Assembly: GCA_009927165.1 (NCBI GenBank)
Contig: RFNO01000038.1
Location: 13,574 to 77,573, forward strand
Direction of reading: 5' to 3'
DNA: 64,000 nucleotides
From: Pseudomonadota bacterium
GTDB lineage: Bacteria; Bdellovibrionota; FAC87; UBA2466
In this document: piece after piece, positions 27,909 to 48,822 of the stretch
Position numbering within the stretch: the first letter of the stretch is position 1
How the letters are laid out: the number at the start of each line of letters is the position of its first letter
The notes under the pieces: model-generated
The model's database searches: none
Told to the model about the DNA's origin: nothing
What the model saw: only the letters and a program-made list of their open reading frames with translations
Translations under genes and position numbers: made by a program

Positions 27909-28412
27909 ATGATGAAACTAATTTACTCTTTACTGTTACTTCTTGGGACTTCAGCAATGGCTCTGGATGGGGTTTACGTCGGGGGCGAGCTAGGTCAGAT
28001 CAGTCTTACGGGGACAACAAAAAGTGTTTACAATAACGCGATTGGGTTTGGTCTTGATGTGGGTTTTCGCATCAACCCAACGCTAGATGTCATGTTTCAA
28101 TCTCAAATGAGTTCTCATAGTGGACTTGCACCCAATTTAAAAATTTATAGTCAAACACTCGGAGCAAATCTTCATTTCGGAATGACAGATTTTGATTTCA
28201 CGTTAGGAATGGGCCCAGGTTTTTATACTTATGACTCAGGAGTCAGTGAAACTCACTTTGGAATTCATGGAGATGTGGGAGCCGATGTTGTGGTTTCTGA
28301 TGGCATGAGAGTGGGTTTGGGGCTTCGTTACCACTCACTATTAGGTGCTACTGGAATGGATGACTATTGGTCCTTGATGATGAGAGTGGGTTATATTTTT
28401 GGCATGAATTAA
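27909..28412 (+). CDS. small outer-membrane beta-barrel protein (OmpA-like/opacity-type 8-strand barrel)
   Basis: It has a signal peptide, alternating aromatic/Gly strands, and a C-terminal ...MMRVGYIFGMN. Confidence 0.55.
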   Translation: MMKLIYSLLLLLGTSAMALDGVYVGGELGQISLTGTTKSVYNNAIGFGLDVGFRINPTLDVMFQSQMSSHSGLAPNLKIYSQTLGANLHFGMTDFDFTLGMGPGFYTYDSGVSETHFGIHGDVGADVVVSDGMRVGLGLRYHSLLGATGMDDYWSLMMRVGYIFGMN

Positions 28413-33837: not shown

Positions 33838-35339
33838 GATTCTGTTCCAGTCATACAAAGGCCTAAGTCAGGTAAAGTCCAATTACTGGCTGCTTTTTCT
33901 GCGATAAATGCCCCATTTCTGATGACTAGGATCCTATCAGAGAGAGTCCTTAATTCGTCGAGATCGGATGAAATAAGGAGGATCCCCGCTCCTTCCGCCC
34001 TTAGCTTCCTGAAGTGTTCATGAAAAAACTCCATTGCCCCAATGTCGACTCCTCGAGAAGGATGGCAAGCTAATAAAAATCGCACTCGATCAGAAGCTTC
34101 GCGAGCAATAATTATCTTTTGCTGATTTCCTCCCGAGAGTGTTGCAGTGGACAAATCGGGATGGCAAGGGCGCACGTCAAAATGCTTCAGTTGATCTTGG
34201 GCGAATTGCCGGATGTGTGGAAAAGAAAGACAACCCAGGCCTTGAAAAGGTTTTTCCCAATGATGTCCAAGGATCAAGTTGTACTCGTTAGTAAATGGGA
34301 GAATGAGCCCATTTTTTTGGCGATCCGGAGGAATGACACCAAAACCTCTTTGCCGGTTTTGATAAGCAGTGAAGTTCAGCAGATCTTCACCAAGCATTTT
34401 AATATGACCTGAGAAGCTCTTAAGTTGTGTGAGTACCTGAACCAGTTCCTCTTGGCCCTGTCCTTCGATCCCGGCAATCCCAACGATTTCGCCAGCCGCC
34501 ACGTTCAGTGATAAGTTGCGAAGCTGTAATCCTTTGCGAGATTTCGTACTGAGCGAAGAAACTTCCAGCACTGCAGTTTGGGGCTCAAAAGAACGTTGAG
34601 ACGTGACAGGAACTTGCCGGTCTCGCCCCATCATCAAAGTAGCTAGCTTATGCTCATCGAGTGAGGCAGTGCTTTCCGTAGCAACGACTTTACCCTGCCT
34701 CATGATCGTGACAGTGTCGGTAAATTCGAGAATTTCTCTCAGTTTGTGAGTAATCAAAATAATTGTCTTTTGCTGTTTTTTCAGCTGAAGCAGTCGATTG
34801 AGTAATACCTCCGACTCTTGCGGAGTAAGAACAGCTGTCGGTTCATCAAGAATTAATATGCGGGCTTTCCGGAAGAGTAGCTTTAGAATTTCTACTTGCT
34901 GTTGTTGCCCGACGGGCAATGTCTCAACTTTCTCTTCAAGGTCTAGTGAAAAACCAAAATCGTTTTGGAGTTGCTGAATTGTTGCTAAAAGATTCGTTTT
35001 GGGAATAAACAAAGATGTGGGTTCATGGCCTAAGATGATATTTTCCCAAACTGAGAGTGTAGGTACCAACTTGAAGTGTTGATGAACCATTCCGATCCCG
35101 GCGCGAATCGCTTGATTTGGATTGTTGAATTGCGTGCTAATCCCGTTTAGTAGGATAGTTCCGGAGTCAGGTGAATGAACCCCATAAAGAATTTTCATGA
35201 TGGTCGATTTTCCGGCGCCATTTTCTCCAACAATACCGTGGAATGAGCCCTGCTGTACTTCAAAAGACACAAGGGTATTTGCTGAGTTTCCATTAAAGTT
35301 TTTTGAAACGCGATCAAACTGTAAAAAGGGGAGGGTCAT
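33834..35339 (-). CDS. ABC transporter ATP-binding protein with two fused NBDs
   Basis: NBD1 has Walker A GENGAGKST and Walker B LILDEPTAVL. In NBD2, LSGGNQQK and the Walker B region are recognisable. Confidence 0.9.
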   Translation of the reverse strand: MTLPFLQFDRVSKNFNGNSANTLVSFEVQQGSFHGIVGENGAGKSTIMKILYGVHSPDSGTILLNGISTQFNNPNQAIRAGIGMVHQHFKLVPTLSVWENIILGHEPTSLFIPKTNLLATIQQLQNDFGFSLDLEEKVETLPVGQQQQVEILKLLFRKARILILDEPTAVLTPQESEVLLNRLLQLKKQQKTIILITHKLREILEFTDTVTIMRQGKVVATESTASLDEHKLATLMMGRDRQVPVTSQRSFEPQTAVLEVSSLSTKSRKGLQLRNLSLNVAAGEIVGIAGIEGQGQEELVQVLTQLKSFSGHIKMLGEDLLNFTAYQNRQRGFGVIPPDRQKNGLILPFTNEYNLILGHHWEKPFQGLGCLSFPHIRQFAQDQLKHFDVRPCHPDLSTATLSGGNQQKIIIAREASDRVRFLLACHPSRGVDIGAMEFFHEHFRKLRAEGAGILLISSDLDELRTLSDRILVIRNGAFIAEKAASNWTLPDLGLCMTGTES

Positions 35340-36343
35340 TTCGACTGATCCCGTTGGTTTTCTTTGTAGTAATCCGGAACAACTATAGTCCCTTTCATAA
35401 TGAGGTTGCGAATAGCGTTCGTTTGCTTTTCAACTTGCGCAGAGATCAAAGGGCGATTGTATTGATCCAAAGAGTAGCTAATAGCTCCTTCTTTAAGTCC
35501 TAAGTGAATGATGCCCGGTTTGAAGCGACCTTTGAGTTTCTGTTCTATCGTTTGAAAGACTGCTAGATCCACTCCTTTGACCATACTTGTGAGAATAAAA
35601 CCAGGTTTTACCCAGTTTTGATTAGAATCCACACCAATGGCGAGTCGATGAGATTCTTCTGCAGCATCAAATACGCCAGCACAGGAAGATCCAGCAGCAC
35701 AAAAAGAGATATCGACCCCTTTTGAGAACTGACCCAGAGCAAGTTCTTTCGCTTTAGTCGGGTTTCTCCACGCGTCAGACGACGCTCCTACATAGTAAGT
35801 CAATGTTTTAATACGGGGCTCAATGGATTGTGCTCCTGCGCGGAATCCTCTCTCGAAACGGCGTATCAAAGGAATATCCATGCCGCCAATAAATCCAATA
35901 TGATTCGTTTTCGTGGTGAGCGCAGCGATGACTCCAACTAAATAGGAACCTTCATGCTCATTAAAAATAACAGATCGAACATTGGGTAAAGAGCTCGGAG
36001 CATCAACTAACAGAAAAGATAAGTTGGGAAATTCTTTTGCAACTTCTTCAATTGGAGATTGCTGAACAAATCCGATTCCAATAATAAGATCATAGTTGTG
36101 TTGAGCAAATGTTCGCAATGATGCTGCGATTGCAGAATCACTTTGGCATTCCAGTACTTTCAAATGGATTCCCAGTTGTTTTTTTGCTTCTGTGGCGCCT
36201 GAGAAAGCCGATGCGTTGAATGATTTATCATCTTTGCCCCCTTTATCTAGAACTAGACCAACTTTAAGTGAAGAGCTTGGGTAAGCGGCATCAGAAAAAA
36301 AGAATAATAGAAAATAAGAGAGAGCTTTCAGGAAGCTGTTCAT
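35336..36343 (-). CDS. BMP-family (basic membrane protein/PnrA-like) ABC substrate-binding protein
   Basis: A signal peptide is present, plus VGLVLDKGGKDDKSFN near the N-terminus, which is typical of the Bmp family. Confidence 0.85.
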   Translation of the reverse strand: MNSFLKALSYFLLFFFSDAAYPSSSLKVGLVLDKGGKDDKSFNASAFSGATEAKKQLGIHLKVLECQSDSAIAASLRTFAQHNYDLIIGIGFVQQSPIEEVAKEFPNLSFLLVDAPSSLPNVRSVIFNEHEGSYLVGVIAALTTKTNHIGFIGGMDIPLIRRFERGFRAGAQSIEPRIKTLTYYVGASSDAWRNPTKAKELALGQFSKGVDISFCAAGSSCAGVFDAAEESHRLAIGVDSNQNWVKPGFILTSMVKGVDLAVFQTIEQKLKGRFKPGIIHLGLKEGAISYSLDQYNRPLISAQVEKQTNAIRNLIMKGTIVVPDYYKENQRDQSK

Positions 36344-36345
36344 AA

Positions 36346-36972
36346 TCAGCTGGTTAATTCATAACGAAGTGGAAGTTCAAATTGGAGTTCTTCCAAAGAG
36401 AGTCCGCCCGGAGGAATGGGGACTTTCTTTAGTTTTTGGAGGAATCGAAGAGCTTCTCTCTGGAGTGCGTGGGGTGCATCTGAAGCCACTAAACGAATAT
36501 TGTCGAGGTACCCCTCTGGCGTTACTTGAAATCTTACTTTTACGGTTCCCGAAATGCCCAGTTCTTTGAGCGAGGGAGGAAACACCTTGGCCGAATCTAA
36601 AAAAGCATGAAGAACCGAGTGATAGGAAGTTGAAGTGCCTCCTTGTCCAATGCCACGGCTTGCGACAGAGTTGCCCGTAACTTCGGAGGTTGCTTGACCA
36701 GTCGTTCCCCTTTTTTCTTGATGAGGTAACTCTAAAGGGGATGTCTGGAGGGAAGCTTTGTGAGTAGGGGATTGGGCAAAAACAGGAAAAAAAGAAACTT
36801 CGGTGGCGTTTCCTAGATTTCCTTGGCGTCCCCACAGTTTCTCAGGCGACGCAAAAGACGCGATTTTTCCTAATTGAGAAAAAATGGCTAAGTGAATGAT
36901 AATACTAGCAAAAATCGAAAGAGAAAATACGGGCCTTTCGAAATTGAAGCCATTCTTGCAAAGGGTAGCCAT
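36346..36972 (-). CDS. tonB: TonB-family energy transducer (C-terminal domain protein)
   Basis: It has an N-terminal TM anchor (FSLSIFASIIIHLAIF), a polar linker, and a TonB_C-like end (GTVKVRFQVTPEGYLDNIRLVASDAPHALQREALRFLQKLKKVPIPP). Confidence 0.7.
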   Translation of the reverse strand: MATLCKNGFNFERPVFSLSIFASIIIHLAIFSQLGKIASFASPEKLWGRQGNLGNATEVSFFPVFAQSPTHKASLQTSPLELPHQEKRGTTGQATSEVTGNSVASRGIGQGGTSTSYHSVLHAFLDSAKVFPPSLKELGISGTVKVRFQVTPEGYLDNIRLVASDAPHALQREALRFLQKLKKVPIPPGGLSLEELQFELPLRYELTS

Positions 36973-36987
36973 GATGCGTTAAACCTT

Positions 36988-37473
36988 ATGCTTAATTTAA
37001 AAAAGGAGCAAGCCCTGGTTCACTTAATCACCCGTTTTGTTCTCTTGGTCTTGGGCGCCTCTCTTATTGAGGGGTGCGGTAATGAGCCTGTCCTTAACCG
37101 TATGGTCACCAGTTTAAATGATTTTTATGCAAAATACGAAGGAATGGATAAAGGAAAATCGTGCTCGGTCATAGTGCATCGAGAGTGGAAAGAAAACAGC
37201 TCTGAATCTAAATCGGTTTATCGAGTTGAAGTCTCCACGAGCTATGAGCACCAAGGGCAGGGACTCGGTAAAGTGATACTCACTTTTGCTCCCACTGGAC
37301 AGGGAAAGATACTTGAGTGGACCAATCCACAAAATGGTGAGTTTTTAAGAATCCAATTATCGGCAGCCAGCGACACACTGCTGGACCCTGTTGCTTTCCG
37401 AATTAAATGGATACACTTCGATCATCTTCACGATGCAACCTGTTCCCAACTAAAAAAGGTAGAAAACCTGTGA
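36988..37473 (+). CDS. putative lipoprotein, unknown function
   Basis: I place the start at ATG 36988 (MLNLKKEQALVHLITRFVLLVLGASLIEGC). The lipobox is atypical (E at -2). The stop overlaps the receptor GTG start (GTGA). Confidence 0.45.
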   Translation: MLNLKKEQALVHLITRFVLLVLGASLIEGCGNEPVLNRMVTSLNDFYAKYEGMDKGKSCSVIVHREWKENSSESKSVYRVEVSTSYEHQGQGLGKVILTFAPTGQGKILEWTNPQNGEFLRIQLSAASDTLLDPVAFRIKWIHFDHLHDATCSQLKKVENL

Positions 37474-39623
37474 AACAAATCGGTTTAATTTGGTTTTTGT
37501 TGGCGGGACTGGCCCTCTCTGCAGAAGAAATAGAAAAACTTCCAGAAATCATTGTTCAAGAAGACTCGGAGAGCACAGCAGTCGAAATGGATAAATCAGC
37601 CGTAATTCCGACATTGCGGTTGCCAAAAGAACGTATTGAACAAAAAAATGCGCCAACTCTGTCAGAGGCCGTAGCTGGTGAAAGCGGAGTAGATGCCCAA
37701 ACCTCTTGTGCTACTTGTGGTTCAAAGCGGGTGACAGTGAATGGTCTTCGAGGAGAACATACAACCATTCTTGTTGATGGTGTCCCTCTGCACTCGGCGG
37801 TTTCCAGTTTTTACGGAGTTGATGCTGTACCCATGTCTGGAGTAGAGTCCATTGAAATTAGTCGAGGTTCAGGAGCGTCTCTCATTGCTCCGGAAGCCAT
37901 CGGAGGGGTACTTAACATCATTACGGAAACTCCTCGAAAAAACGAAGTTGATTTGGCGTTATCTTCGGGAACTTCTCAAAATTGGTTGTTAACAGGGGCG
38001 GCATCAGACACCAAATTATTTAAAAACACCCGATTATTTATTTCCGGTCAGTGGAACCGGCAAGGTTACTGGGATGCTAACAAAAGTGGCGTTTGGGATG
38101 TCGACAAAAATGGTGTTTCCGACGCCCCATTTTTTTCAAATGCTGGAATTTTATCTAAAGTTATTTTTGATTTGGGATCTCGTGACAATCTCGAACTCAG
38201 GTACGCTTGGCAGAATGTGTCCATTCTTGGGGGAACCACTGACGGTACAAAACCCTCTTCTTATTTAGCCATAGTAGACTTGCCCAAGTTTCAGGATAAC
38301 AACGTAGAGAAACCCTACTTAGATTCCCAAATAAAAATATCGGATGTAGTTGGGTTGGAGAGACAAGAAGCAGTTGCTCGGTGGCGACATAGGGTCGGAG
38401 ATAGCGCGCAACTTCAAAGCACTTCTAGTGTCGCGTGGCAGAATCAGGACTCGATTTATTTTCACGGGTATGACTATCGAAACAGAGACTTGTTAGCATT
38501 TCAGGAAGTTCGTTTTTCCACCCCCGTATCGATGGATCATATTTTGACTTTGGGAACGGACGGTCGCTGGGAGGACATGCGCTCTTTTTCGGACAAGCTT
38601 TATGGAATTAAAAAATTGGCTCCCGATGATTTTAACTTTAGAAATGCAGCGCTATTTCTGCAAGACACTTGGCAGATAGGTCTTGATCATGAACTCAACG
38701 TTGCAGGTCGTTTAGATTACCTTCATGTGACTTGGCCATATCAGCAAGATGGACAAAGAACAGTTGAGAAGGTCCTTGCATCTCCTCGTTTGTTCTGGAA
38801 ATGGAATCAATCCCAAGAGTGGATTGGAAGACTGTCCTATGGTCGCGGATATCGAGCACCGTTAAGTTTCTTTGAGTCCCAGCACGGGCTCAGTGAGAAT
38901 GGATTTACGATTGGTCTCTCCGAGATTGAGACAGCGCATTCCTTGGGAGTTTCCGAACAACTGACAACGGGCCCTTGGGAAGTCAATAGCAGCGTTTATG
39001 GAACGTGTTTGAGCCATCTAGCTTATGCTGCAGATCCAGTCGATAACTTTTCGCCGGCTCGATTTGAGAACTTAACAAATGATGTCTGGGTTGTTGCGAG
39101 CGGAGTATCTGGGACTTATCGAAAATCTGGCTGGCTATTTGAATTAGCTCTTGAGGATTTTAGATTGCCCCAAGTATACAAAAAATTGCTTCCAGTCGCG
39201 GCTACTGAGCAGCGAGCGAGGATCCGAGCTGAGAAAAAGCTGGGTTCATGGGAAGTGTCTTTGGCAGCTAATATAACCGGTCCCAGAAATCTGTCGGATT
39301 ACGGATACAATCACCATTTTGTAAACTATGAATCAGTGGATTCTGGCTTGGGACCAGTTGAGGTTCTTAAGGATCGAAAGAATCAAATGGCTCCGTTGTT
39401 TGCTACCCTTGATGTAGGAACATCCTTTCAGCCCACACGAGAGTTAGAAATTGCTCTAAATGTATTCAATGTTACAGACTTTACTCAAACGGGTTGGGGT
39501 GATTCCCCACTTACTTGGAATCAGCATGGTTCAGATCCGGCACATTTTCATTTAGATAACCTTCATGTGTGGGGCCCATTGAGAGGCCGCGTATTTATGT
39601 TTTCTTTAAAGGCGCAAATGTAG
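37470..39623 (+). CDS. TonB-dependent outer-membrane receptor
   Basis: Plug motifs (VTVNGLRGEHTTILVDGVPL, IEISRGSGASLIAPEAIGGVLNIIT) and a long barrel are present. I place the start at GTG 37470, which gives signal peptide VKQIGLIWFLLAGLALSA. Confidence 0.85.
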   Translation: MKQIGLIWFLLAGLALSAEEIEKLPEIIVQEDSESTAVEMDKSAVIPTLRLPKERIEQKNAPTLSEAVAGESGVDAQTSCATCGSKRVTVNGLRGEHTTILVDGVPLHSAVSSFYGVDAVPMSGVESIEISRGSGASLIAPEAIGGVLNIITETPRKNEVDLALSSGTSQNWLLTGAASDTKLFKNTRLFISGQWNRQGYWDANKSGVWDVDKNGVSDAPFFSNAGILSKVIFDLGSRDNLELRYAWQNVSILGGTTDGTKPSSYLAIVDLPKFQDNNVEKPYLDSQIKISDVVGLERQEAVARWRHRVGDSAQLQSTSSVAWQNQDSIYFHGYDYRNRDLLAFQEVRFSTPVSMDHILTLGTDGRWEDMRSFSDKLYGIKKLAPDDFNFRNAALFLQDTWQIGLDHELNVAGRLDYLHVTWPYQQDGQRTVEKVLASPRLFWKWNQSQEWIGRLSYGRGYRAPLSFFESQHGLSENGFTIGLSEIETAHSLGVSEQLTTGPWEVNSSVYGTCLSHLAYAADPVDNFSPARFENLTNDVWVVASGVSGTYRKSGWLFELALEDFRLPQVYKKLLPVAATEQRARIRAEKKLGSWEVSLAANITGPRNLSDYGYNHHFVNYESVDSGLGPVEVLKDRKNQMAPLFATLDVGTSFQPTRELEIALNVFNVTDFTQTGWGDSPLTWNQHGSDPAHFHLDNLHVWGPLRGRVFMFSLKAQM

Positions 39624-39625
39624 CG

Positions 39626-40078
39626 ATGAGTGTGAAGAGCAGTCTAGTTAGCATCGGTATTTTTCTTGCGGCAACCAGCTGGGGCATTTCCTGCCCAGGA
39701 GATTCGCTTTCTGTTTCTGATCCTCTAACCCAGCAACAAACTTGCCTACAGCGATGGAGCTCTAAATCTCTCGTTATGGTAACCGAATCGGATTGTCATT
39801 ACTGTCAATTACTCCTAAAGAGGATTCAGTCCGAAGCTCGAAAGCCAGACCTTTTTGAGTTGGTTTTAGTATGGGTTGATTCCGCTCCTGACTACTGTTT
39901 GAGTGCGGCTCAAAAATTCAGTACTTTAGGGAAGAACGTTTGTTCATCGAGACGTGACGTGGAGCAAAAGTGGAAAATTAATTCGACGCCGACGATCTTT
40001 TGGAAAGAAAAGGGGATTCCCAGAGTTCAAAAAGGTTTGGTCGATACGAATAAACCTCTTCTTTGGAACATTCCTTGA
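39626..40078 (+). CDS. periplasmic thioredoxin-fold protein (CxxC)
   Basis: Start is at ATG 39626, giving signal peptide MSVKSSLVSIGIFLAATSWG. The CHYC motif sits in the context VMVTESDCHYCQLL, and a ...STPTIFW cis-Pro-loop-like region is present. Confidence 0.55.
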   Translation: MSVKSSLVSIGIFLAATSWGISCPGDSLSVSDPLTQQQTCLQRWSSKSLVMVTESDCHYCQLLLKRIQSEARKPDLFELVLVWVDSAPDYCLSAAQKFSTLGKNVCSSRRDVEQKWKINSTPTIFWKEKGIPRVQKGLVDTNKPLLWNIP

Positions 40079-40860
40079 AAATTGATTCAAGCCCACCACT
40101 CATGCTTCTTCAGTCGGTCGCTTACCAGTTCGGTAATCAAGAAAAAATGCTATTTGACGAAATTTATCTCGCTTTAGGAGTTCGGGAAACGATTGTTGTC
40201 CTGGGGCCTTCTGGTGCTGGAAAAACGACGTTGCTAAAACTCATGGCAGGCCTTATCAATCCTATCCACGGAAAAATTCTGTTTCGTGGAGAAGAAGTGG
40301 CTCGCACAAACAAAAAGACTAGCATTGAACTGTCTAAACAGATTGGGATGAGCTTTCAAATGGGTGGGCTCTTGGATACTTTTTCTGTGGGAGGTAACAT
40401 TGATTTCGCTCTTGAGCAGCTTACTTTATTGAATAGAAGCGAAAGAAGTGAAGTGGTCCATTCTGTTTTAGACCAAGTTGGGTTAGCAAAAGTGGAAAAT
40501 TGTCTTTTGGAGGAACTCAGTGGGGGAATGTTGAAGCGCCTTTCTCTCGCTCGTGCGATTGCTCTTGAGCCCAGTATTTTGCTGCTGGATGAGCCTACTG
40601 CGGGGTTGGATCCAGTCACCTCGTTGGAAATTGTGAACCTAATTAAGGATTTTCAGGGGAAAAAACAAGCTTCGGTCGTTGTGGTAACAAGCGATCTCTC
40701 TGTCGCCTTTTCGATGGCTGATAGGTTAGTGTTTCTTTGGAATGGCAAGCTAATTGACGTGGGGACACCGGCACAAGCGCTGAATAGTACTTATCCGGCT
40801 GTAAATCAGTTTATCAGCGGAAAAAGTATCGGGCCCTTAACGGCTGATGAATATGCTTGA
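40063..40860 (+). CDS. Mla-type ABC ATPase paralog 1 (MlaF-like)
   Basis: Walker A GPSGAGKTT, Q-loop GMSFQ, signature LSGGMLKR (as in MlaF), Walker B LLLDEPTAGLD. The H-loop position reads VVVTSDL, with Ser in place of His. ATG 40102 (MLLQSVAYQFG) is an alternative start. Confidence 0.85.
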   Translation: MEHSLKIDSSPPLMLLQSVAYQFGNQEKMLFDEIYLALGVRETIVVLGPSGAGKTTLLKLMAGLINPIHGKILFRGEEVARTNKKTSIELSKQIGMSFQMGGLLDTFSVGGNIDFALEQLTLLNRSERSEVVHSVLDQVGLAKVENCLLEELSGGMLKRLSLARAIALEPSILLLDEPTAGLDPVTSLEIVNLIKDFQGKKQASVVVVTSDLSVAFSMADRLVFLWNGKLIDVGTPAQALNSTYPAVNQFISGKSIGPLTADEYA

Positions 40861-41575
40861 AGTAAAAAATCTTTCAAAAGTGTTGGGAGAGCGACAGGTC
40901 TTGGAAAATATGTCTCTGTCAGTTCAACAGGGAGAGATTCTCTTTGTTCTGGGACGCTCAGGTGTTGGGAAGTCGGTGTTGTTAAAGACAATTGTAGGTT
41001 TAATTCATCAAGATAAAGGAGAAGTATGGATTGATGGGGAAAAAACTCATCCGGAAAGAGAATTAGCAATGGTAGCAGTCAGGCGACAGTGCGGATTAGT
41101 GTTTCAGAGCCCTGCGTTGTTTGATTCCATGACCGTAAAGGAAAATTTGATTTTTGGTGACGAGGATAAAGCAAGACATATTTCAGCAACTATGGCCTGG
41201 TTGAAGCTCCCCGAAAAGATATTAAACTTTTATCCATCGGAGTTAAGTTTCGGATTCCAAAAAAAAGTGAGCCTGTTGCGAACATTGCTTTCTAACCCGA
41301 AGTATCTTTTATTTGATGAACCCACTACAGGGCTCGACCCAGTTACTACAAATTTGGTGAATGATGTAATTCGGGATTGCGCCAAGGCACGAAACATGGG
41401 CTGTCTAGTGGTTTCACACGATCTTCAAAGTGCTTACCACTTAGCCGACAGAATTGTTCTCATTGATCAGGGCAAAATCGCACTGAGTGGAACTCCATCG
41501 AATTTTAAAGAATCAGATTATCCACTTGCCGTGGCTTTTCGTAAAGGAACTATCAATTTTGCTGAAGGCTATTAA
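40847..41575 (+). CDS. Mla-type ABC ATPase paralog 2 (MlaF-like, degenerate signature)
   Basis: Walker A GRSGVGKS, Walker B LLFDEPTTGLD and H-loop VVSHDL are intact. The signature motif is degenerate (LSFGFQKK instead of LSGGM/Q). Confidence 0.85.
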   Translation: MNMLEVKNLSKVLGERQVLENMSLSVQQGEILFVLGRSGVGKSVLLKTIVGLIHQDKGEVWIDGEKTHPERELAMVAVRRQCGLVFQSPALFDSMTVKENLIFGDEDKARHISATMAWLKLPEKILNFYPSELSFGFQKKVSLLRTLLSNPKYLLFDEPTTGLDPVTTNLVNDVIRDCAKARNMGCLVVSHDLQSAYHLADRIVLIDQGKIALSGTPSNFKESDYPLAVAFRKGTINFAEGY

Positions 41576-42344
41576 CAAGGGAATAGAAGGGTTAGGACGT
41601 TGGGCTGAGTTTTCAATCCGAGTGTTCAAGACTTTTACAAGCAAGGGCGTGTCCAGCACTTCACTTGTGGAGCAAATGTATCATGTGGGAGTCCGCTCAC
41701 TGCCTATTACTATTGTATCGGGTTTGTTTGTCGGGGCTATTCTAGCCATCCAGATCAATCTACAGTTGAAGGATTTTGGCGCTCAGACCTTTTTAGGGGG
41801 ACTGAGCACTTCTACTACCTTGCGAAATTTAGGACCAGTTTTGATAGCTTTTTTGCTGTCTGGAAGAGTAGGGGCTTTTACTTCAGCGGAACTAGGGACG
41901 ATGGCAATTACTGACCAATTAAATGCTATACGTTGTTTAGGCATGGATCCTGTTGAGAAAATTGTAGTTCCACGATTAGTAGCACTCACTTGTTCAAGTT
42001 TTTTGTTATTAATTTTGGGGTTGGGAATGACAGTGGTGGGGGGAGTGGTGATTTCATCAGCGCATTTGGGGGTTAATCCTATTCAGTTTTCCCAAAACAT
42101 TTCCCTCTTTGTGTCTTCGTGGAGCATTGGAATCGGAGTGGTAAAAAGTTTTCTTTTTGGACTTATGATTGGAACTATTTCGTGTTTTTTTGGATATCAC
42201 ACAGCAGGGGGAGCCAGAGGTGTGGGCCGTGCCGTTAAACGAACCTCAGTTGCTACATTAGTATCGATTATTTTGATGGATTTTCTTGTGTCCACAGCTT
42301 TGGAAAGCTTGAAAACGTTTTTTGAAATCATGGCAAACTCATGA
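41487..42344 (+). CDS. MlaE-type ABC permease paralog 1
   Basis: The MlaE pattern is present (...TDQLNAIRCLGMDPVEKIVVPRLVA...). The listed start overlaps the ATPase gene by 89 nt. TTG 41559 is a plausible alternative start. Confidence 0.8.
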   Translation: MELHRILKNQIIHLPWLFVKELSILLKAINKGIEGLGRWAEFSIRVFKTFTSKGVSSTSLVEQMYHVGVRSLPITIVSGLFVGAILAIQINLQLKDFGAQTFLGGLSTSTTLRNLGPVLIAFLLSGRVGAFTSAELGTMAITDQLNAIRCLGMDPVEKIVVPRLVALTCSSFLLLILGLGMTVVGGVVISSAHLGVNPIQFSQNISLFVSSWSIGIGVVKSFLFGLMIGTISCFFGYHTAGGARGVGRAVKRTSVATLVSIILMDFLVSTALESLKTFFEIMANS

Positions 42345-43123
42345 GAAACAACGAACAGAGAGTTTTGTTTTTGGGATTTGAAGCCCTTTTAAGCCCCATT
42401 CGGTTGTTTGCAACATCTTGTCGAGTGTTGGTCTTTTCAATAGTTAATATACGGCTTCACGGGCGAGAGATCACCAATCAGATGTTTGAGTCGGCAGTCT
42501 TAAGCCTTCCCATCATTTTGTTTTCGTTAACCATTGTTTCTCTGATGAGTATTTTGGAATTTTCTTGGCATATGAAATTGGTTTTAAAGCAGGATGCTTT
42601 GGTTCCCGGATTCTCAATGGTTTTAATGGTGCGTGAAGTAGCTCCTGTGGTGACAGCGATGCTCTTAACTTCGCGTGTAGGAGCATCCATTGCAGCTGAG
42701 TTAGGATTTATGAAAGTAACCGAGCAGCTAGATCAACTGAAACTACTATCGGTATCTGAAGTTGAGTATCTCGTGATCCCACGTTGGGTTGGGTGTGTTT
42801 TTGCGAGCATCACGCTTACGCTAGCGTCTTTGGTAACTTCAATTTGCGTTTCTACAGGTATCGCTTCTCGATTCATGAACTACCAGCCCCATGAATTTTT
42901 TAATACCTTATTTGTATTTACGAAAGCTTTTGACCTGGGAGGAGGCTTATTGAAAGCATTTTGTTTTGGAACGATTATTCCCTTTGTTTCGTGTGTGTGC
43001 GGGTTGTCGTGTCAAGGCGGGAGCCGGGGAGTCGGGCAAGCGGCCACTCGAGCAGTGGTTCAAAGCTGTTTGTTTATCATTTTTGCTGATTTCTTTCTCA
43101 GTTACTGGTTGTGGACCTTCTAG
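42341..43123 (+). CDS. MlaE-type ABC permease paralog 2
   Basis: The MlaE pattern is present (...VTEQLDQLKLLSVSEVEYLVIPRWVG...). ATGA overlap with paralog 1. Confidence 0.8.
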   Translation: MRNNEQRVLFLGFEALLSPIRLFATSCRVLVFSIVNIRLHGREITNQMFESAVLSLPIILFSLTIVSLMSILEFSWHMKLVLKQDALVPGFSMVLMVREVAPVVTAMLLTSRVGASIAAELGFMKVTEQLDQLKLLSVSEVEYLVIPRWVGCVFASITLTLASLVTSICVSTGIASRFMNYQPHEFFNTLFVFTKAFDLGGGLLKAFCFGTIIPFVSCVCGLSCQGGSRGVGQAATRAVVQSCLFIIFADFFLSYWLWTF

Positions 43124-43278
43124 ATACGCGCACATGACTCACTCAATCATAAAGAAAGAGCTCCGGGCGCCACGCGTTACTAATTTAGATCCCTGTCGTG
43201 TTCCCTCTCGAGTATAATAAAGAGAAACGCAGTTAGTCTTACCTTCTTTAATTCCACCAGCTTAAAAATTAATTCGTC

Positions 43279-44055
43279 ATGGCACAACAGCACCGAAAAC
43301 AGTTTTGGGTCGGCTCACTTGTTTTAATATCTGTCGGATTTCTATTCGCTTTCACTTGGGGCTTAGGCTTGATCAGCCCTTTAAGTTCAAGCAATCAGTA
43401 CGACGTCTTCTATAATTTTGCTGGCGGGGTAGAGGTGGGAGCACCCGTGAGAGTCAGTGGCATTAAGGTAGGCAAAGTTGAGAAAATTCAGTTTTTGCAT
43501 GAGGAGTTACCCGAGCCGTTCACTGGAACCTCAGTGAAACTCACTGTGAGTGTGAATCAGGAAGCAAAATCACTGGTAAAAGAGGATTCTAAGTTTTATG
43601 TGAATATCGCTGGCATCATCGGCGAAAGATACATTGAAATAACACCTGGAAGCGCCGCTAGTGCCCTGTTAATTCCGAGCTCAAAGGTTCGTGGAATTGA
43701 TCCTCCACGAGTCGATCAACTGCTTTCCCAGGGATACGGCGTGTTTGGAAGAGTACAGGATTTTCTCGAGCAAAATGAAAGCACTTTGAAAGAGCTGCTC
43801 ACCACAGTGAATTCACTGATGACTGATACCAACCAACTCCTAAAAACCGTTGATCGGAAAAAGCTCAACCGGTTGGTAGATAATCTCAATGAAGTCAGCT
43901 CGAATTTTGGAGCACTTTCGCGCGGATTCAGAGAACCAAGAAGTCGGAAATTTGTCGATCAAGTCTATGATTTAGTGGACCGGGCTCACCAAATCGACAA
44001 AGAAGCATTAAAACAATTTTTCCAAGAAGAAGGCGTACGAGCTCGAATTTTTTAA
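43279..44055 (+). CDS. MlaD-like MCE-domain protein
   Basis: It has an N-terminal TM anchor, then an MCE core (FAGGVEVGAPVRVSGIKVGKVEKI ... NIAGIIGERYIEITPG) and a C-terminal helical region. Confidence 0.8.
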   Translation: MAQQHRKQFWVGSLVLISVGFLFAFTWGLGLISPLSSSNQYDVFYNFAGGVEVGAPVRVSGIKVGKVEKIQFLHEELPEPFTGTSVKLTVSVNQEAKSLVKEDSKFYVNIAGIIGERYIEITPGSAASALLIPSSKVRGIDPPRVDQLLSQGYGVFGRVQDFLEQNESTLKELLTTVNSLMTDTNQLLKTVDRKKLNRLVDNLNEVSSNFGALSRGFREPRSRKFVDQVYDLVDRAHQIDKEALKQFFQEEGVRARIF

Positions 44056-44071
44056 CAAAAAAGGTCATCGT

Positions 44072-44587
44072 ATGAAAAAAATTATTTGTCTGATTGCTCT
44101 GGTCATAACAAATCTTACCTATGCCAGTTTTATGGCTGATTTTCGTTTAGAACGTCGTTTCGGAGTAGGGTTGGGGGTAGGGGGCCCTCTCAGTGTCTTA
44201 GGATTAGAAGTTGAATTTAATTTATCATCAGATGTGTCATTGGTCGGAGGAATTGGCAGTGGCCATGATTACTCAACTTTTGCCGCCAGAGGAAAGTATT
44301 TTTTTCTCGGTGACCAAGTGAGCCCTTATTTCTTGCTTGGGTTTGCCCGTTGGTGGAGCCAGGGGACTACCCAAACAGACGTTGGACCAGCAGTCCTCAA
44401 AAATATCTTTCTTCAGGGCGAGGATCCCAGACAAGGTTTCAGCGTTTGGACTGTTTATCCAGGAATTGGTGTCCAATTTATCCACGATTCCGGATTTTCA
44501 ATGTATGCCGAAGCTCACTACTTATTTAAGATGCCGAGTTTTTCAAATGGTACTTATGCCGGGCTAGGAGCTTCCTGGTTCTTCTAA
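44072..44587 (+). CDS. small outer-membrane beta-barrel protein
   Basis: Signal peptide MKKIICLIALVITNLTYA, alternating strands, and a C-terminal aromatic signature ...GLGASWFF. It starts 16 nt after the MlaD-like gene. Confidence 0.55.
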   Translation: MKKIICLIALVITNLTYASFMADFRLERRFGVGLGVGGPLSVLGLEVEFNLSSDVSLVGGIGSGHDYSTFAARGKYFFLGDQVSPYFLLGFARWWSQGTTQTDVGPAVLKNIFLQGEDPRQGFSVWTVYPGIGVQFIHDSGFSMYAEAHYLFKMPSFSNGTYAGLGASWFF

Positions 44588-44597
44588 TCGTTATCAA

Positions 44598-46547
44598 ATG
44601 CGCCGATTTCTTAACTATTTCCAGTCAAGCACACGTAGCTTAAAAACGCAGCTTGCCTTCTATTTCATTCCCGTAACGGTGCTGCCTGTTTTGGGTATTA
44701 GTTATTATGCAACCCACATTTTTGAAAAAAGCACCGAGGAAAGATTATTCCGTCAAGCAGAGTCTGAACAAAGTTTAGTGGTTTCGGAACTAGAAGCAGC
44801 AGAAAAAACCATTTCAGCGCAAATTCGTCGATACGCCAATTTGGATATTTTAATTTCTGCTGTCTCAAGTAAGAGTCCCCAAAAAATCACCCCCATTATT
44901 TCTGGCCTACGCTCCAACGGAAAACTGAGAGTTTATACAGCCGATGGTGATTTTCTTGCTGAAGGAGTGAGCGAACCCAACCTTCATTCGAGAGTCAACT
45001 ACATATCGAGAGAAGGACTAAAAAAAGTAAAAACTCAAGGAATCACAGTCGAGCGCTTTTTTGCTGACGATGGAGCGGGTCTTATTATTCTGGGAAGAGC
45101 GCTGTTGAAAGATGGTGATCGGCTTTATGGGATCTTGGAACAAGAAACTCTCTTCGGTCATGCCCAACTTGCGGAGATTCGAAGTAGACGACAGCTAGAT
45201 GTTATTTTTGTGAAGCGAGACTTTTCTACAGCGACATCAAGTTTGTCTATCGGATCCCAGCGCCTCGTTGATTTTTCCAAGGGGTTATTACAGTCAAAAA
45301 TAGTGGCATCTCATGCCTTCAACCCGATATGGCTGGGAGATGTTAGGTATGCCAGCTATCTGTACGACTTACCTGACATGACTGGGAAAACCAAGAGCTG
45401 GGCTTATCTAGGTATCCTGTTGCCTCTGACTCAAAGCGATCAAACTTCTCGTCAGTTAAGGATTAATATTATCTATATAACTGCTTTCTTGGCATTGGGT
45501 TTTGGATACCTCATCTTTGTTTTCTCAAATCGAATCGTGAAACCGATTGAAGTGCTTGTCGTCGCCATGAAACGAGTGAAAACTGGAAACGTTGAGGAAA
45601 TCCCACCTAACGATTCCAGCTATGAAATCGACTATCTGATCAGTGCGTTCAACGAAATGATACGGAATGTTAGTGCTGCTAAGAGAGCGCTGGAACTGAA
45701 AGTAGATGAGCTTAGAAAAGCTAACGCTGAAATAAAGAGCACCCAGACTACCTTGGTACAATCAGCAAAGATGATCTCCCTGGGACAGATAGTTGCAGGC
45801 GTTGCCCATGAACTGAATAATCCTGTCGCATTTATTTATAGTAATATGCATCATTTGTCGGGATATATAGAAAAAATAAAAGAAATGATTTCCGCCTACC
45901 AGGCTTTGAAAATGGAGATACCAGTAGATAAACGTAAAGAAGTTGAGAATCTTGAGCAAAAACTTGAGATTTCATTTCTCTTAAATGACATGGGTGAGCT
46001 TACCCAGAGTTGTTTAGATGGAGCGAATCGTACCAAGGAAATCGTTCTTGGATTGCGAACATTTTCTCGTATGGATGAGTCAAGCTTTCGACCCTCTGAT
46101 CTCCATGAAGGTCTCAAGAGCACTCTGCGTCTTTTGAGCGCCGAATTAAAAAATCGAATTACCGTTCATCAGGAATTCGGTGAAATCCCGAAAGTCGAGT
46201 GTGCACTTTCACAGATAAATCAAGTGTTCATGAATCTGATCTCAAATGCGGCGCAAGCGATAAATGGGAAAGGCAGTATATGGATTCGAACATACTCTGA
46301 AGAGAAATCCGTTATTATTGAGATTGAAGACTCAGGGATGGGAATGAGTCCCGAAGTAGTGAGCCAAGTTTTTGTTCCGTTTTTTACGACGAAGAGAGTG
46401 GGCGAGGGAACTGGGCTAGGTCTCTCAATAGCTTATGGTCTGATTCAAAAGCATAATGGGCGTATAGAAGTTGAAAGTGAACCGGGAAAAGGTACTTTGT
46501 TTAGAATAATTCTGCCTATCACACAAAGAGTTTCCGAAGCAGGGTAA
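44598..46547 (+). CDS. sensor histidine kinase (2 TM, periplasmic sensor, HAMP, HisKA, HATPase_c)
   Basis: H-box GVAHELNNP, N-box FMNLISNAAQA, G1 EIEDSGMGM and G2 GTGLGLSIAYG are present. There are two hydrophobic segments at residues ~20-40 and ~290-310. Confidence 0.9.
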   Translation: MRRFLNYFQSSTRSLKTQLAFYFIPVTVLPVLGISYYATHIFEKSTEERLFRQAESEQSLVVSELEAAEKTISAQIRRYANLDILISAVSSKSPQKITPIISGLRSNGKLRVYTADGDFLAEGVSEPNLHSRVNYISREGLKKVKTQGITVERFFADDGAGLIILGRALLKDGDRLYGILEQETLFGHAQLAEIRSRRQLDVIFVKRDFSTATSSLSIGSQRLVDFSKGLLQSKIVASHAFNPIWLGDVRYASYLYDLPDMTGKTKSWAYLGILLPLTQSDQTSRQLRINIIYITAFLALGFGYLIFVFSNRIVKPIEVLVVAMKRVKTGNVEEIPPNDSSYEIDYLISAFNEMIRNVSAAKRALELKVDELRKANAEIKSTQTTLVQSAKMISLGQIVAGVAHELNNPVAFIYSNMHHLSGYIEKIKEMISAYQALKMEIPVDKRKEVENLEQKLEISFLLNDMGELTQSCLDGANRTKEIVLGLRTFSRMDESSFRPSDLHEGLKSTLRLLSAELKNRITVHQEFGEIPKVECALSQINQVFMNLISNAAQAINGKGSIWIRTYSEEKSVIIEIEDSGMGMSPEVVSQVFVPFFTTKRVGEGTGLGLSIAYGLIQKHNGRIEVESEPGKGTLFRIILPITQRVSEAG

Positions 46548-46554
46548 TAAACAT

Positions 46555-48822
46555 ATGAAGATTTGGAACATCGGATATCCGCGAATAGGGAGACAAAAAG
46601 AGTTAACTGCTATTGTCGACTCCTTTCTTAAGAATCAGATAAAAGATAACGAGCTTTTGAGCAAGGGAAGTGAACTACTCAGAAGCCGATGGGAAACGCA
46701 GCATAATTTAGGGGTGGATAGTATCCCACTCAACGATTTCAGTTTTTGCGACCCTATTCTTGATACGGCCCAACTGTTCAATCTCATTCCTGAAATAGGA
46801 GAGGAGAAGAAGAGCTGGCTTCTCGATTCTTTTGTGCTCACGGGACAAAGAACGTTAGCTGGTCAACTTCCGCTCAAATTGGCTAAGTGGTTTAACACGA
46901 ACTACCATGTCTCTTCGCCTGAAGTAAACGCTCAGACAAAATTTAGTCTGAAAAAAGGGAAACTCCACTGGGAATTAGAACAGTCAAAAGCTGTTCCCTA
47001 TAATTTTCATGTCACGCTTGTGGGACCATGGACGCTTGCAAAGTATTGCCGATTACAGGGTATAACTTTGCCAGGTATTTTGGCGGAATTGGCACCCCTG
47101 TACAAAAGCCTAATCAATGAAATCCACAAAAAAGGCATCCAGTGGATTCAACTTGAGGAACCCGCACTTTGTCAGGATCTCGATCGCTCCGATCTCAAAA
47201 CTATTCAAAAAACGTATGAAAGTTTTGAGGGGGCAGCATCAAAGATAATGCTGTCGCTCGCTTATGAATCTCCGGATCCTTGGTTGACTGACCTTGCGCT
47301 CTTGCCGGTACATGGGTTTCACTTTGATCTTGTTTCTGGACCCGCAACGTTCAGTTGGATTAAGACACGTTCTTTCCCCCGAGATAAAATTTTGTGTCTG
47401 GGACTTGTTGATGCGCGAAATGTCTGGGCAGCTCCTCTATCCAGCTTATACAAACAGATTGAGATCCTGAAGGGCTTTCATCCAGTCAGCAAAATGATGG
47501 TTGCGCCGAGTGCATCATTAACTCATTTGCCGATCTGCAAAAAAGTCGAAGTGGAACTTAAAAAGAAAGAGGCTCTTTTCAGATCTCTTTCCTTTGCTGA
47601 TCAGAGGCTGGAAGAGTTGGCACAACTGAAAATGGTGCTTTTGGGAGAAGCAGATGCAGAAGGTCTCCAAAAAGCCGAAACTTTATTGAGGCAGGATCTG
47701 AAGAACCTTCATAAAGTAGACGAGGGTGTTCAAAAGCAGATAAATAAAATTGAACCAACCATGAAACGACGAACGTCCTCATTTGCAAAGCGTTTCAAGG
47801 CCCAGAGCAAAAAATTGGGTCTGCCCCGTCTTCCATGCACAACCGTTGGTTCATTTCCTCAAACAGATGAAATCGTAGAAGCTAGAAAAAGGGCCAAAGA
47901 AGGAGCCGACCGAGAAAGCTACTATCATAGTCTCATTAAGATGGAGATTGCTAAAGCCATTGATATTCAGGAATCAGTGGGGATGGATGTGCTTGTGCAC
48001 GGGGAATGTGAAAGATCAGACGTTGTTGAATATTTTGCCGCTCAGCTGGCGGGTTTTTCGGTTACAGAACATGGTTGGGTACAGTGTCTCGGGACTCATT
48101 GTGTTCGACCCCCCATCATTGTTTCGGATATTCAACGAAAAGAGCCCATGAGTCTCCTGGGTTATAAAATGGCCCAAGAATTAACGCCCAAACCAGTTAA
48201 AGCGATAGTTACCGGGCCAGTAACGTTAGTAAACTGGTCATTTGTTCGCCAGGATCAACCTCAAGAAAAAACTGCACTTCAAGCGGCGTTAGCTATTCGG
48301 GCTGAACTTAAGGAGCTAGAGCGCTTTGGTGCAAAAATCATTCAAATAGACGAGCCGGGGATCAAAGAAGGTCTACCCATCAAAAAGGGAAAGAGGCCGA
48401 ACTATCTACGTTGGGTAACCGATGTGTTTCGTTTAGCAACTTCTGGCGTACAAGATGAAACTCAAATTCAAACCCATTTGTGTCTCAACGATCTATCGGA
48501 ACTGATTGAAGCCGTCGGCAAGTTTGACAGTGACGTATTTCTCATTGAAACATCCCGTTCAAATGGAAATCTATTGAGCTTTTTGAAAACAACTGTTTTT
48601 GAGTCCAGTATCGGCCCCGGAATTTATGATGTCCATTCCAGACATGTCCCTACAGTAAATGAATTTGAACTGTCCCTCCGGAAATGTTTCGAAGTTCTCG
48701 CTCCGGAAAAGATATGGGTTGTCCCCGATTGTGGATTGCGTACTAGAACCCACGACGAAGTACGACAAGCGTTGGCCAACATGGTGGAATCCGCCAAAAG
48801 AATTCGGAAATTATTAGGTTAA
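46555..48822 (+). CDS. metE: cobalamin-independent methionine synthase
   Basis: 755 aa with the two-barrel architecture. C-terminal Zn ligand motifs THLCLND and VVPDCGLRTR are present. Confidence 0.92.
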   Translation: MKIWNIGYPRIGRQKELTAIVDSFLKNQIKDNELLSKGSELLRSRWETQHNLGVDSIPLNDFSFCDPILDTAQLFNLIPEIGEEKKSWLLDSFVLTGQRTLAGQLPLKLAKWFNTNYHVSSPEVNAQTKFSLKKGKLHWELEQSKAVPYNFHVTLVGPWTLAKYCRLQGITLPGILAELAPLYKSLINEIHKKGIQWIQLEEPALCQDLDRSDLKTIQKTYESFEGAASKIMLSLAYESPDPWLTDLALLPVHGFHFDLVSGPATFSWIKTRSFPRDKILCLGLVDARNVWAAPLSSLYKQIEILKGFHPVSKMMVAPSASLTHLPICKKVEVELKKKEALFRSLSFADQRLEELAQLKMVLLGEADAEGLQKAETLLRQDLKNLHKVDEGVQKQINKIEPTMKRRTSSFAKRFKAQSKKLGLPRLPCTTVGSFPQTDEIVEARKRAKEGADRESYYHSLIKMEIAKAIDIQESVGMDVLVHGECERSDVVEYFAAQLAGFSVTEHGWVQCLGTHCVRPPIIVSDIQRKEPMSLLGYKMAQELTPKPVKAIVTGPVTLVNWSFVRQDQPQEKTALQAALAIRAELKELERFGAKIIQIDEPGIKEGLPIKKGKRPNYLRWVTDVFRLATSGVQDETQIQTHLCLNDLSELIEAVGKFDSDVFLIETSRSNGNLLSFLKTTVFESSIGPGIYDVHSRHVPTVNEFELSLRKCFEVLAPEKIWVVPDCGLRTRTHDEVRQALANMVESAKRIRKLLG

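Follow-up and report, generated by a model that had tools for sequence, protein, structure and literature searches.

The stretch analyzed here, referred to as the window, comprises 64,000 nucleotides of contig RFNO01000038.1 (positions 13,574 to 77,573), and its sequence derives from freshwater metagenomes. At 36988-44587 it carries nine consecutive genes that encode a small lipoprotein, a TonB-dependent receptor, a probable thioredoxin-fold protein, two ATP-binding cassette (ABC) ATPases (F1 and F2), two MlaE-family permeases (E1 and E2), an MCE protein, and a small outer-membrane barrel. With a probability of roughly 0.72, which includes the mechanisms proposed below, this locus consists of two independent envelope modules whose adjacency is limited to a single shallow clade of uncultured freshwater bacteria, which is probably Bdellovibrionota-related. 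Module A (36346-40078) is built around the receptor and would serve metal uptake, whereas module B (40063-44587, perhaps with a histidine kinase included to 46547) would be an Mla-type transporter with an asymmetric, heteromeric ABC core and a dedicated barrel. The genes are listed below; the labels of all nine are backed by Pfam/NCBIfam profile searches.

36346-36972 (-): tonB, module A; PF03544 TonB_C 9.4e-13, TIGR01352
36988-37473 (+): lipoprotein or small secreted protein, module A; lipobox-like LIEGC, no Pfam match
37470-39623 (+): TonB-dependent receptor, module A; Plug 1.2e-16, barrel 5.1e-11 (Pfam)
39626-40078 (+): probable thioredoxin-fold protein, module A; CHYC motif
40063-40860 (+): F1 ABC ATPase, module B; PF00005 8.8e-30
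40847-41575 (+): F2 ABC ATPase, module B; PF00005 6.9e-32
41559-42344 (+): E1 MlaE-family permease, module B; PF02405 3.6e-62
42341-43123 (+): E2 MlaE-family permease, module B; PF02405 3.6e-53
43124-43278 (+): intergenic gap of 155 nucleotides between E2 and the MCE gene
43279-44055 (+): MCE (MlaD-like) protein, module B; PF02470 7.5e-17
44072-44587 (+): small outer-membrane barrel of 171 amino acids, module B; eight-stranded model
44598-46547 (+): HAMP histidine kinase; HAMP, HisKA, and HATPase_c matches, 10-nucleotide gap after the barrel
46555-48822 (+): metE; 7-nucleotide gap after the kinase

The separation of the modules is illustrated by their gene contexts. Loci of homologs of the receptor, E2, and the barrel (given here with L numbers) were compared, and species-representative genomes were additionally scanned; the Pfam tables of the related loci cover ~10 kb around the module genes. 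The full nine-gene order was seen only in L001/L002 (79% receptor identity) and L093 (67%), where the entire ~22-kb neighborhood from topA to metE is syntenic with the window. Since these close relatives share the whole 22-kb neighborhood, the nine-gene linkage carries no extra information.

Outside this syntenic clade, the receptor set stands without Mla genes in four of four contexts, and a FUR-family regulator lies beside it in two. In L003 (57% receptor identity), the small protein, the receptor, and a thioredoxin-like protein follow each other. L004/L005 (44%) harbor a divergent tonB, the small protein, the receptor, a thioredoxin-like protein, and a FUR-family regulator. The small protein, the receptor, and a convergent FUR-family gene are present in L091 (35%), and the receptor is accompanied by TonB, ExbB, and ExbD in L092 (34%).

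The order F1-F2-E1-E2-MCE, usually followed by the barrel, recurs in 12 further loci (L006-L015, L089, and L090) from Bdellovibrionota metagenome-assembled genomes (MAGs) and metagenome contigs, with no receptor within 10 kb in any of them. Some of these receptor-free clusters were reached via E2 orthologs (56%, 53%, and 44% identity) and via barrel orthologs (51% and 50%). The other seven came from the scan of species-representative genomes and lie in MAGs labeled Pseudobdellovibrionaceae, Bdellovibrionales, Bdellovibrionaceae, and Oligoflexia; in other phyla, the scan showed the ordinary single E-F(-D) order. L006 has the Bmp operon upstream and barrel-kinase-metE downstream, but a PAS sensor in place of the tonB-receptor set. 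Receptor sets without Mla genes, Mla-type loci without a receptor, and the arrangement of L006 together indicate that the two modules were inherited independently in the contexts examined.

Module A: a CxxC-plug receptor and its partners

The receptor carries a TonB box (LPEIIVQ, 37539-37559) and a CATC motif (residues 101-104, 37707-37718) that lies inside the Plug match (residues 72-168). The wider motif at the center of the plug, C-x-x-C-G-x-[KR]-R, is retained by 117 of 119 database homologs, down to ~31% identity, and the other two have D-x-x-C. CANC, CAFC, CSMC, and CSIC occur as variants in relatives, and CQNC was found in none of the 119 homologs. The named NCBIfam receptor families gave sub-threshold matches only, and the PDB relatives of the receptor align over the plug region only.

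The thioredoxin-fold protein that follows the receptor harbors CHYC (39794-39805) and a TP of the cis-proline type (39983-39994). It matches PF13098 with 23.5 bits, which is under the 27-bit cut-off, whereas its L004 ortholog passes the 26-bit cut-off of AhpC-TSA with 27.0 bits. The CxxC, the T-P ~60 residues further on (the spacing of the thioredoxin cis-proline), and four further cysteines are invariant in 10 family members. Of the nine other members, eight have C-x-P-C as their CxxC, and CHYC occurs in the window only; for the gene directly after the receptor, the variants are CHYC in the window, CVPC in L001, CAPC in L003, and CDPC in L004. L093 has a 139-amino-acid gene in this position, directly after the receptor, that is known from its position alone, and the L091 and L092 receptor contexts lack a thioredoxin-fold gene. 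The family is very small and fast-evolving, with 14 representatives among 1.84 billion proteins. PDB sequence searches with this protein and with the lipoprotein gave no meaningful match.

The small protein upstream of the receptor (36988-37473) has no Pfam or PDB match and no known domain. Homologs are encoded directly upstream of the receptor in L001, L003, L004, and L091, and these four counterparts share with it the motifs C...VSTSYEH and [KR]W[LIM]H[FG]xH[LF]H..C. In the window protein, the motifs are represented by STSYEH at 37234-37251 and WIHFDHLHDATC at 37408-37443. Two of the four counterparts have no lipobox cysteine, so lipidation is not universal in this family.

The divergent tonB, which starts 15 nucleotides from the lipoprotein start, belongs with the receptor. 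It adjoins the receptor set in L001, L093, and L004 as well, and the TonB protein of the window (36346-36972) has an SxxxH motif in its N-terminal membrane helix. FUR-family genes adjoin the receptor set in L004 (12606-13052) and L091 (8106-8555, (-)), and both regulators show an HHHHH run before C-terminal CxxC pairs. On its other side, tonB heads a same-strand run with the genes of a Bmp-family (nucleoside-type) ABC importer (31866-36343, (-)), which consists of a binding lipoprotein, a fused double ATPase, and two permeases. The pairing of tonB with the Bmp importer is kept in L001 and L093, with the difference being that the L004 tonB is followed by MTHFR and a major facilitator superfamily transporter instead. 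The Fur-box-like AATGATAAT at 36895-36903 (+) agrees with the E. coli Fur-box consensus over nine bases in a row and overlaps with the highest-ranking promoter-like site (36874-36903), but its position inside the tonB coding region means that it may be a coincidence.

By analogy with a receptor pair of Stenotrophomonas maltophilia and from the FUR-family neighbors, module A probably serves the TonB-energized import of a metal, as an ion or in a complex, through the outer membrane. The S. maltophilia pair, published in 2026, is a bicistronic, MntR-regulated unit of a CQNC receptor and a CAPC periplasmic thioredoxin-fold protein (pTFP) that is induced under manganese and iron limitation (PMC13217887). 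In the proposed mechanism, the thioredoxin-fold protein would keep the plug cysteines of the receptor reduced, and the small His/Cys protein would act as a metal-binding partner of the receptor.

An unlikely alternative to metal uptake is that module A imports an organic chelate or cofactor such as a siderophore, heme, or cobalamin, with the plug cysteines forming a structural disulfide and the thioredoxin-fold protein acting as a general periplasmic oxidoreductase. The best NCBIfam/PDB similarities of the receptor are to BtuB and to heme and siderophore receptors, confined to the plug and far under the cut-offs, and it is textbook knowledge that FUR-family regulators also govern iron-chelate uptake. 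However, no chelate periplasmic binding protein or ABC importer is linked to the receptor in any of its contexts, and the His/Cys-motif partner points to direct metal handling. The tiny size of the thioredoxin-fold family also argues against a general oxidoreductase, as does the presence of such a small gene directly after the receptor in the window, L001, L003, L004, and L093 (by homology in the first four). Additionally, the published analog is regulated by MntR (PMC13217887).

Read as a metal uptake system, module A broadens the recently proposed class of CxxC-plug TonB-dependent receptors with a dedicated periplasmic thioredoxin-fold partner; its new elements are the conserved His/Cys partner protein and a connection to FUR-family regulators.

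Module B: an Mla-type core with paired ATPases and permeases

Module B has the PF02405 permeases and the PF02470 MCE protein of an MlaFED core, and both ATPases are clear PF00005 members. In place of the single mlaF and mlaE of the canonical pathway, there are two paralogs of each with their own ortholog sets. The initial annotation of the locus had recognized no MlaA, MlaB, or MlaC equivalents, which agrees with the Pfam searches: MlaA, MlaC, and STAS (MlaB) domains were found neither in the nine proteins and ~30 further open reading frames (ORFs) of the window nor in the Pfam tables of the related loci. Such an absence is not unusual, given that MlaEFD is taken to be the ancestral core and that MlaABC occurs mostly in Proteobacteria (PMC10665443).

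Sequence identity is 32% between F1 and F2 and 33% between E1 and E2. NF008809 (MlaF) is among the best matches of both ATPases, with 158.6 bits (1.8e-46) for F1 and 134.7 bits for F2, far under its 441-bit cut-off. Similarly, TIGR00056 gives 201.9 bits (1.4e-59) for E1 and 155.1 bits for E2, both under the cut-off of 212.2 bits. E2 is the more divergent permease, and its orthologs (at least 44% identity) are set apart from generic MlaE proteins (at most 39%). In a simple neighbor-joining tree, the ortholog sets of E1 (14 orthologs), E2, and F1 each form one clade, and the duplication is therefore older than the divergence of these lineages. The F2 orthologs were not resolved as a clade in the neighbor-joining tree with midpoint rooting, which is a crude method. 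The canonical MlaE and MlaF proteins of other phyla are closer to E1 and F2 than to E2 and F1, which fits E2 and F1 as the derived partners.

Both ATPases differ from canonical MlaF in their nucleotide-binding motifs. F1 has a degenerate H-loop (VTSDL, 40684-40698), with its Walker A, signature (LSGGML), and Walker B being canonical. F2 shows the reverse, a degenerate signature (LSFGFQ, 41243-41260) combined with canonical Walker A, Walker B, and H-loop (VSHDL) motifs. The motifs were compared in alignments of 13 F1 and 14 F2 orthologs, with 45 single-copy MlaF proteins of other phyla from the same data set as a control:

Walker A: F1 canonical; F2 canonical
Signature: F1 xSGG, canonical; F2 LS[FY]x in 14/14, first Gly replaced by an aromatic residue
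Walker B: F1 catalytic Glu replaced by Asp in 9/13; F2 DEPT, canonical
H-loop: F1 His replaced by Ser, Thr, or Asn in 13/13; F2 His, canonical

Among the MlaF controls, xSGG is present in 44 of 45, DEP in 42 of 45, and the H-loop histidine in at least 40 of 45. Each ATP site of an ABC protein combines the Walker and H-loop side of one domain with the signature of its partner. The complementary motif losses would thus give an F1/F2 dimer one canonical site, composed of the F2 catalytic side and the F1 signature, and one doubly degenerate site. As judged from these sequences, F1 and F2 are predicted to be obligate partners in a heterodimer that has a consensus ATP site and a degenerate one. Conserved complementary loss is a hallmark of obligate heterodimeric ABC transporters, and it is therefore the strongest argument that the duplication produced a functional heteromer.

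Alternatively, module B could comprise two tandem-encoded homodimeric transporters (e.g., F1 with E1 and F2 with E2) that share or compete for one MCE protein. The canonical Mla core is, by the textbook, a homodimer of MlaF and of MlaE; both ATPase paralogs keep Walker A, and both permeases match the MlaE fold strongly. An F1 homodimer would, however, have two sites without the H-loop histidine and an F2 homodimer two sites with a degenerate signature, and only the F1/F2 pairing yields a fully canonical site, with losses that are complementary over 13-14 orthologs. The gene order is additionally F1-F2-E1-E2 and not F1-E1-F2-E2, and there is a single MCE gene. Two separate homodimeric transporters are accordingly considered improbable.

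No two-gene MlaF/MlaE heteromer and no degenerate ATP site in an MCE-coupled transporter was found described in the literature searched, which is not proof of novelty; the literature searched on Mla in Bdellovibrio and on selenocysteine or Cys-motif receptors likewise gave no description. Going by the sequences, the asymmetric heteromeric Mla-type core with a dedicated barrel would be the feature of this locus that stands out, with module A being akin to the kind described in 2026.

The MCE protein scores 61.8 bits against PF02470 (cut-off 25.1). Its orthologs (15 aligned) have a nearly fixed length of 254-263 amino acids, with the window protein ending at residue 258. A DPPR[IV]DQL[IL]SQ linker after the MCE domain is kept in 15/15, and so is the C-terminus [QE]E[ED]G[IV][RK][AS][RHK][ILM]F, which reads EEGVRARIF in the window (44026-44052) and alternates between hydrophobic and basic residues in the manner of a β-strand. 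A single-sequence AlphaFold2 model gives a membrane helix at residues 4-30 and ~100-110 helical residues after the domain; with a predicted local distance difference test (pLDDT) score of 41.5, it is to be read as rough secondary structure.

The barrel protein has a signal peptide and a C-terminal aromatic residue (...SWFF). Its AlphaFold2 model, built from a 45-sequence alignment, reaches a pLDDT of 91.5 and shows eight strands, a short N-terminal helix, and a helical loop at 97-122. The best Foldseek match is the OprF N-domain (4rlc, TM 0.78), and the OmpA transmembrane domain, Ail, and OmpX were found as well. PF13505 (OMP_b-brl) is matched with 25.9 bits, under its cut-off of 28.7 bits. 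A homologous or similar signal-peptide protein with an aromatic end is encoded directly after the MCE gene in 12 of 15 loci; the barrel-type gene is absent in two, and in one the contig ends too early. The closer barrel family adjoins the MCE gene in all five contexts examined.

Two other identities of the barrel were considered and set aside. Its origin as a split-off MlaD barrel is unsupported, as BLASTP against a long MlaD of Megamonas (Negativicutes) found nothing. The idea of a PagP-like enzyme, which came from the N-terminal helix and the eight strands, was dropped when Foldseek ranked OprF, OmpA, and Ail first and returned no PagP. The window contains a second small outer-membrane barrel gene after topA (27909-28412, (+), 167 amino acids, PF13505 6.6e-12) that is unrelated in sequence to the 44072-44587 barrel; L001 and L093 carry a biotin-lipoyl gene there instead.

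A histidine kinase gene lies within ~12 nucleotides after the barrel in the window, L001, L093, L006, L007, L089, and L090, and is absent from the Bdellovibrionales-type loci L008-L015. It may be part of module B in this lineage. The kinase is an orphan with a periplasmic domain of ~250 amino acids and no response regulator nearby, and it is a more conserved neighbor of the Mla-type module than the receptor. The Bdellovibrionales-type loci encode a different protein just downstream of the MCE/barrel genes, a ~245-amino-acid membrane protein without a Pfam match that ends in ...GR+xKWK[VI] (L008 11963-12694, L009 12443-13192, and also L010, L011, L013, and L015); the window lineage does not have it.

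In the proposed mechanism, the consensus site with the F2 catalytic side would be hydrolytic, and the degenerate site would have a binding or regulatory role. E1 and E2 would likewise pair asymmetrically in the membrane, beneath a ring of six MCE subunits. The MCE protein would reach the outer membrane with its helical extension and the amphipathic strand conserved at its C-terminus, and the eight-stranded barrel would serve there as an anchor or dock. A hydrophobic cargo, most likely phospholipid, would then move between the membranes without MlaC or MlaA, in one direction or the other. In its most specific form, this proposal is an obligately asymmetric Mla-type machine of Bdellovibrionota and related uncultured lineages, with a homohexameric MCE tube that docks by its C-terminal strand (...EEG[IV]RARIF) on the barrel; it is tentative and stands at somewhat less than even odds. 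Elsewhere in the window, and unlinked to the locus, lie two lipid-related genes, which encode a patatin-like phospholipase (1192-2310, (-)) and a YceI-like protein of the polyisoprenoid- or lipid-binding type (14107-14826, (+)).

Junctions, transcription, and weighing of the readings

The initial annotation had described nine same-strand genes with overlaps or very short gaps, apart from one 155-nucleotide gap before the MCE gene. This was confirmed, with the ORFs in place and the gap being exactly 155 nucleotides; all other junctions are overlaps of 4-17 nucleotides or gaps of 2-23 nucleotides. The receptor ORF opens at 37407, but translation likely begins at GTG 37470, where the start codon and the lipoprotein stop share the sequence GTGA. 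For the thioredoxin gene, ATG 39626 is the probable start, F1 has TTG 40063 or ATG 40102 as start candidates, and E1, whose ORF itself opens at 41487, probably starts at TTG 41559. The tight same-strand run extends past 44587 through the histidine kinase and metE. As these two genes are packed equally closely, the packing is a property of the genome and does not mark out nine genes.

A TATAAT at 43213-43218, within the 155-nucleotide gap, is conserved. The window and L001 have TATAATAAA and a second block in common, though the gap has diverged overall, and this suggests, at the level of sequence, an internal promoter for MCE-barrel-kinase. In most of the more distant loci, the gap before the MCE gene is only 3-40 nucleotides. 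The RNA fold of the gap is not more stable than those of shuffled sequences (z +1.19). Rfam searches were negative both over 30-50 kb (E up to 1) and across the whole window (gathering scores), and no tRNA was found. Promoter-like sites (12 versus 17.7 expected from shuffled sequence) and terminator-like sites (16 versus 13.5) do not exceed chance in number and give weak hints only. Further downstream, in a flagellar export cluster (fliL, fliM, fliO, fliP, fliR, flhB), flhB is present as two overlapping ORFs (61386-61823 and 61742-62458, (+)) that cover Bac_export_2 profile positions 1-128 and 124-335, which may reflect a frameshift, a fault of the assembly, or a genuine split.

Several points weigh against two independent modules with the mechanisms given above. 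Between the thioredoxin stop and the F1 start there is either an overlap or a gap of no more than 23 nucleotides, with no predicted terminator; the junction is too short for a classical terminator and promoter, so that read-through from module A into module B is possible and the modules may be co-transcribed in this clade. Three metatranscriptome runs of a related study gave no contig on 36000-49000. For module B, the heterodimer, stoichiometry, cargo, and direction are all deduced from sequence, and the MCE model is unreliable at its pLDDT, which makes the length and shape of the periplasmic extension tentative. The barrel has a generic fold that is too narrow for lipid passage, and the missing BLASTP similarity to the Megamonas long MlaD counts here as well. 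For module A, a search for a FUR-family gene in the window found none, nor was another regulator gene found there, the window plug has CATC and not CQNC, and the metal role leans on analogy with a system whose own function is putative.

A single trans-envelope machine of all nine genes, in which the receptor is an outer-membrane port that replaces MlaA and feeds a hydrophobic substrate to the MCE/ABC core, is very improbable. In its favor, the nine genes run contiguously on one strand, with the short thioredoxin/F1 junction described above, and their order persists in relatives with as little as 67% receptor identity. The gene contexts largely refute this machine, however: the relatives with the same order share the whole 22-kb neighborhood, the four receptor contexts outside the clade have no Mla genes, and the 12 other Mla-type loci have no receptor. 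The receptor is also accompanied by conserved partners that point to metal uptake, namely the His/Cys protein, the thioredoxin-fold protein, TonB, and the FUR-family regulator. The non-canonical trans-envelope system of the initial annotation survives in part, as a heteromeric ABC core with one MCE protein and a small barrel, and loses the receptor, the lipoprotein, and the thioredoxin-fold protein; its replacement of MlaA by the receptor is unsupported. The annotation had also made its case depend on conservation of the arrangement beyond this genome, which holds for the six-gene set F1-F2-E1-E2-MCE-barrel, found well beyond it, and fails for the nine-gene unit, found only in close relatives.

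The two-module reading bears on several questions of Mla/MCE transport, namely its direction, its ATP stoichiometry, and the coupling of a two-fold ABC core to a six-fold MCE ring. A fixed pair of one consensus and one degenerate site, together with non-equivalent permeases, would provide a built-in asymmetric system for structural and biochemical work, and with it the degenerate-site principle of type IV exporters would also apply to transporters of the MlaE fold. As a gene of its own, the small barrel would be a third solution for the outer-membrane end, beside MlaA-porin and fused MlaD barrels. If true, the asymmetric machine would be a trans-envelope lipid bridge of new design that could show the number of ATP per MCE transporter cycle and reveal how the two-fold core is coupled to the six-fold ring. 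For genome scanning, the lesson is that tight same-strand packing in a compact genome is no evidence of one system.

Comparison with known systems

Module A resembles the S. maltophilia CQNC receptor and its pTFP in the C-x-x-C at the center of the plug, followed by a periplasmic thioredoxin-fold CxxC protein (PMC13217887). The likeness is drawn from the published description and not from sequence homology. The pTFP motif CAPC is the same as in L003, and CxPC is found in eight of the nine other family members, whereas the window has a CATC plug (CANC and CSMC in relatives) and a CHYC thioredoxin motif. The extra small His/Cys protein and the divergent tonB are further differences, and the regulators of the relatives are of the FUR family and not MntR.

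Module B shares with E. coli MlaFEDB, MlaC, and MlaA-OmpC/F the MlaE-fold permease and the inner-membrane MCE protein, with ABC ATPases that have MlaF among their best, though sub-threshold, profile matches, and phospholipid moving between the membranes is the likely cargo here too. In E. coli, the single MlaF and MlaE form homodimers with two identical ATP sites, in contrast to the paralog pairs with complementary degenerate motifs in module B. The MCE protein is ~75 amino acids longer here, ends in a conserved strand, and is followed by a small barrel gene dedicated to it, and STAS (MlaB), MlaC, and MlaA were not found in this locus or its relatives.

One degenerate site is known from the heterodimeric ABC exporters of the TM287/288, TAP1/2, BmrCD, and CFTR type. 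As predicted for F1/F2, the non-canonical catalytic residues lie opposite a non-canonical signature in these transporters, and one consensus site is left, with the difference being that they are type IV exporters of a different membrane fold.

The actinobacterial Mce systems have a permease heterodimer of two MlaE-family paralogs (YrbEA/YrbEB), as is proposed for E1/E2, and their helical MCE extensions form a periplasm-spanning needle with a C-terminal strand cap. They use one ATPase gene (MceG, a homodimer) and six MCE proteins, whereas module B has two ATPase genes and one MCE gene. A small barrel that is assembled from single C-terminal strands is described for Mce1 (PMC10665443).

MlaEFD systems without MlaABC that bridge the envelope via a long MlaD have precedent (PMC10665443; PMC12436622), and long MlaD proteins are common, some of them with a fused C-terminal outer-membrane barrel (PMC10665443). 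Veillonella parvula MlaEFD is such a minimal core, with a helical MCE extension and a β-barrel at the outer-membrane end (PMC10665443). In V. parvula, the barrel is part of the MlaD polypeptide, with 10 predicted strands, and MlaE and MlaF are single genes, whereas the barrel of module B is a separate 171-amino-acid gene product with eight strands.

In Brucella, the chimeric Mla-Pqi bridge Mpc (MpcEFDA) couples an Mla-type core to an outer-membrane lipoprotein (PMC12436622). Mpc resembles module B in its Mla-type ABC core, its long MCE protein, and a dedicated outer-membrane partner in the same operon (PMC12436622). The partner in Mpc is a PqiC-like lipoprotein and no β-barrel, and MpcE and MpcF are encoded by single genes, in contrast to the paired permeases and ATPases of module B.

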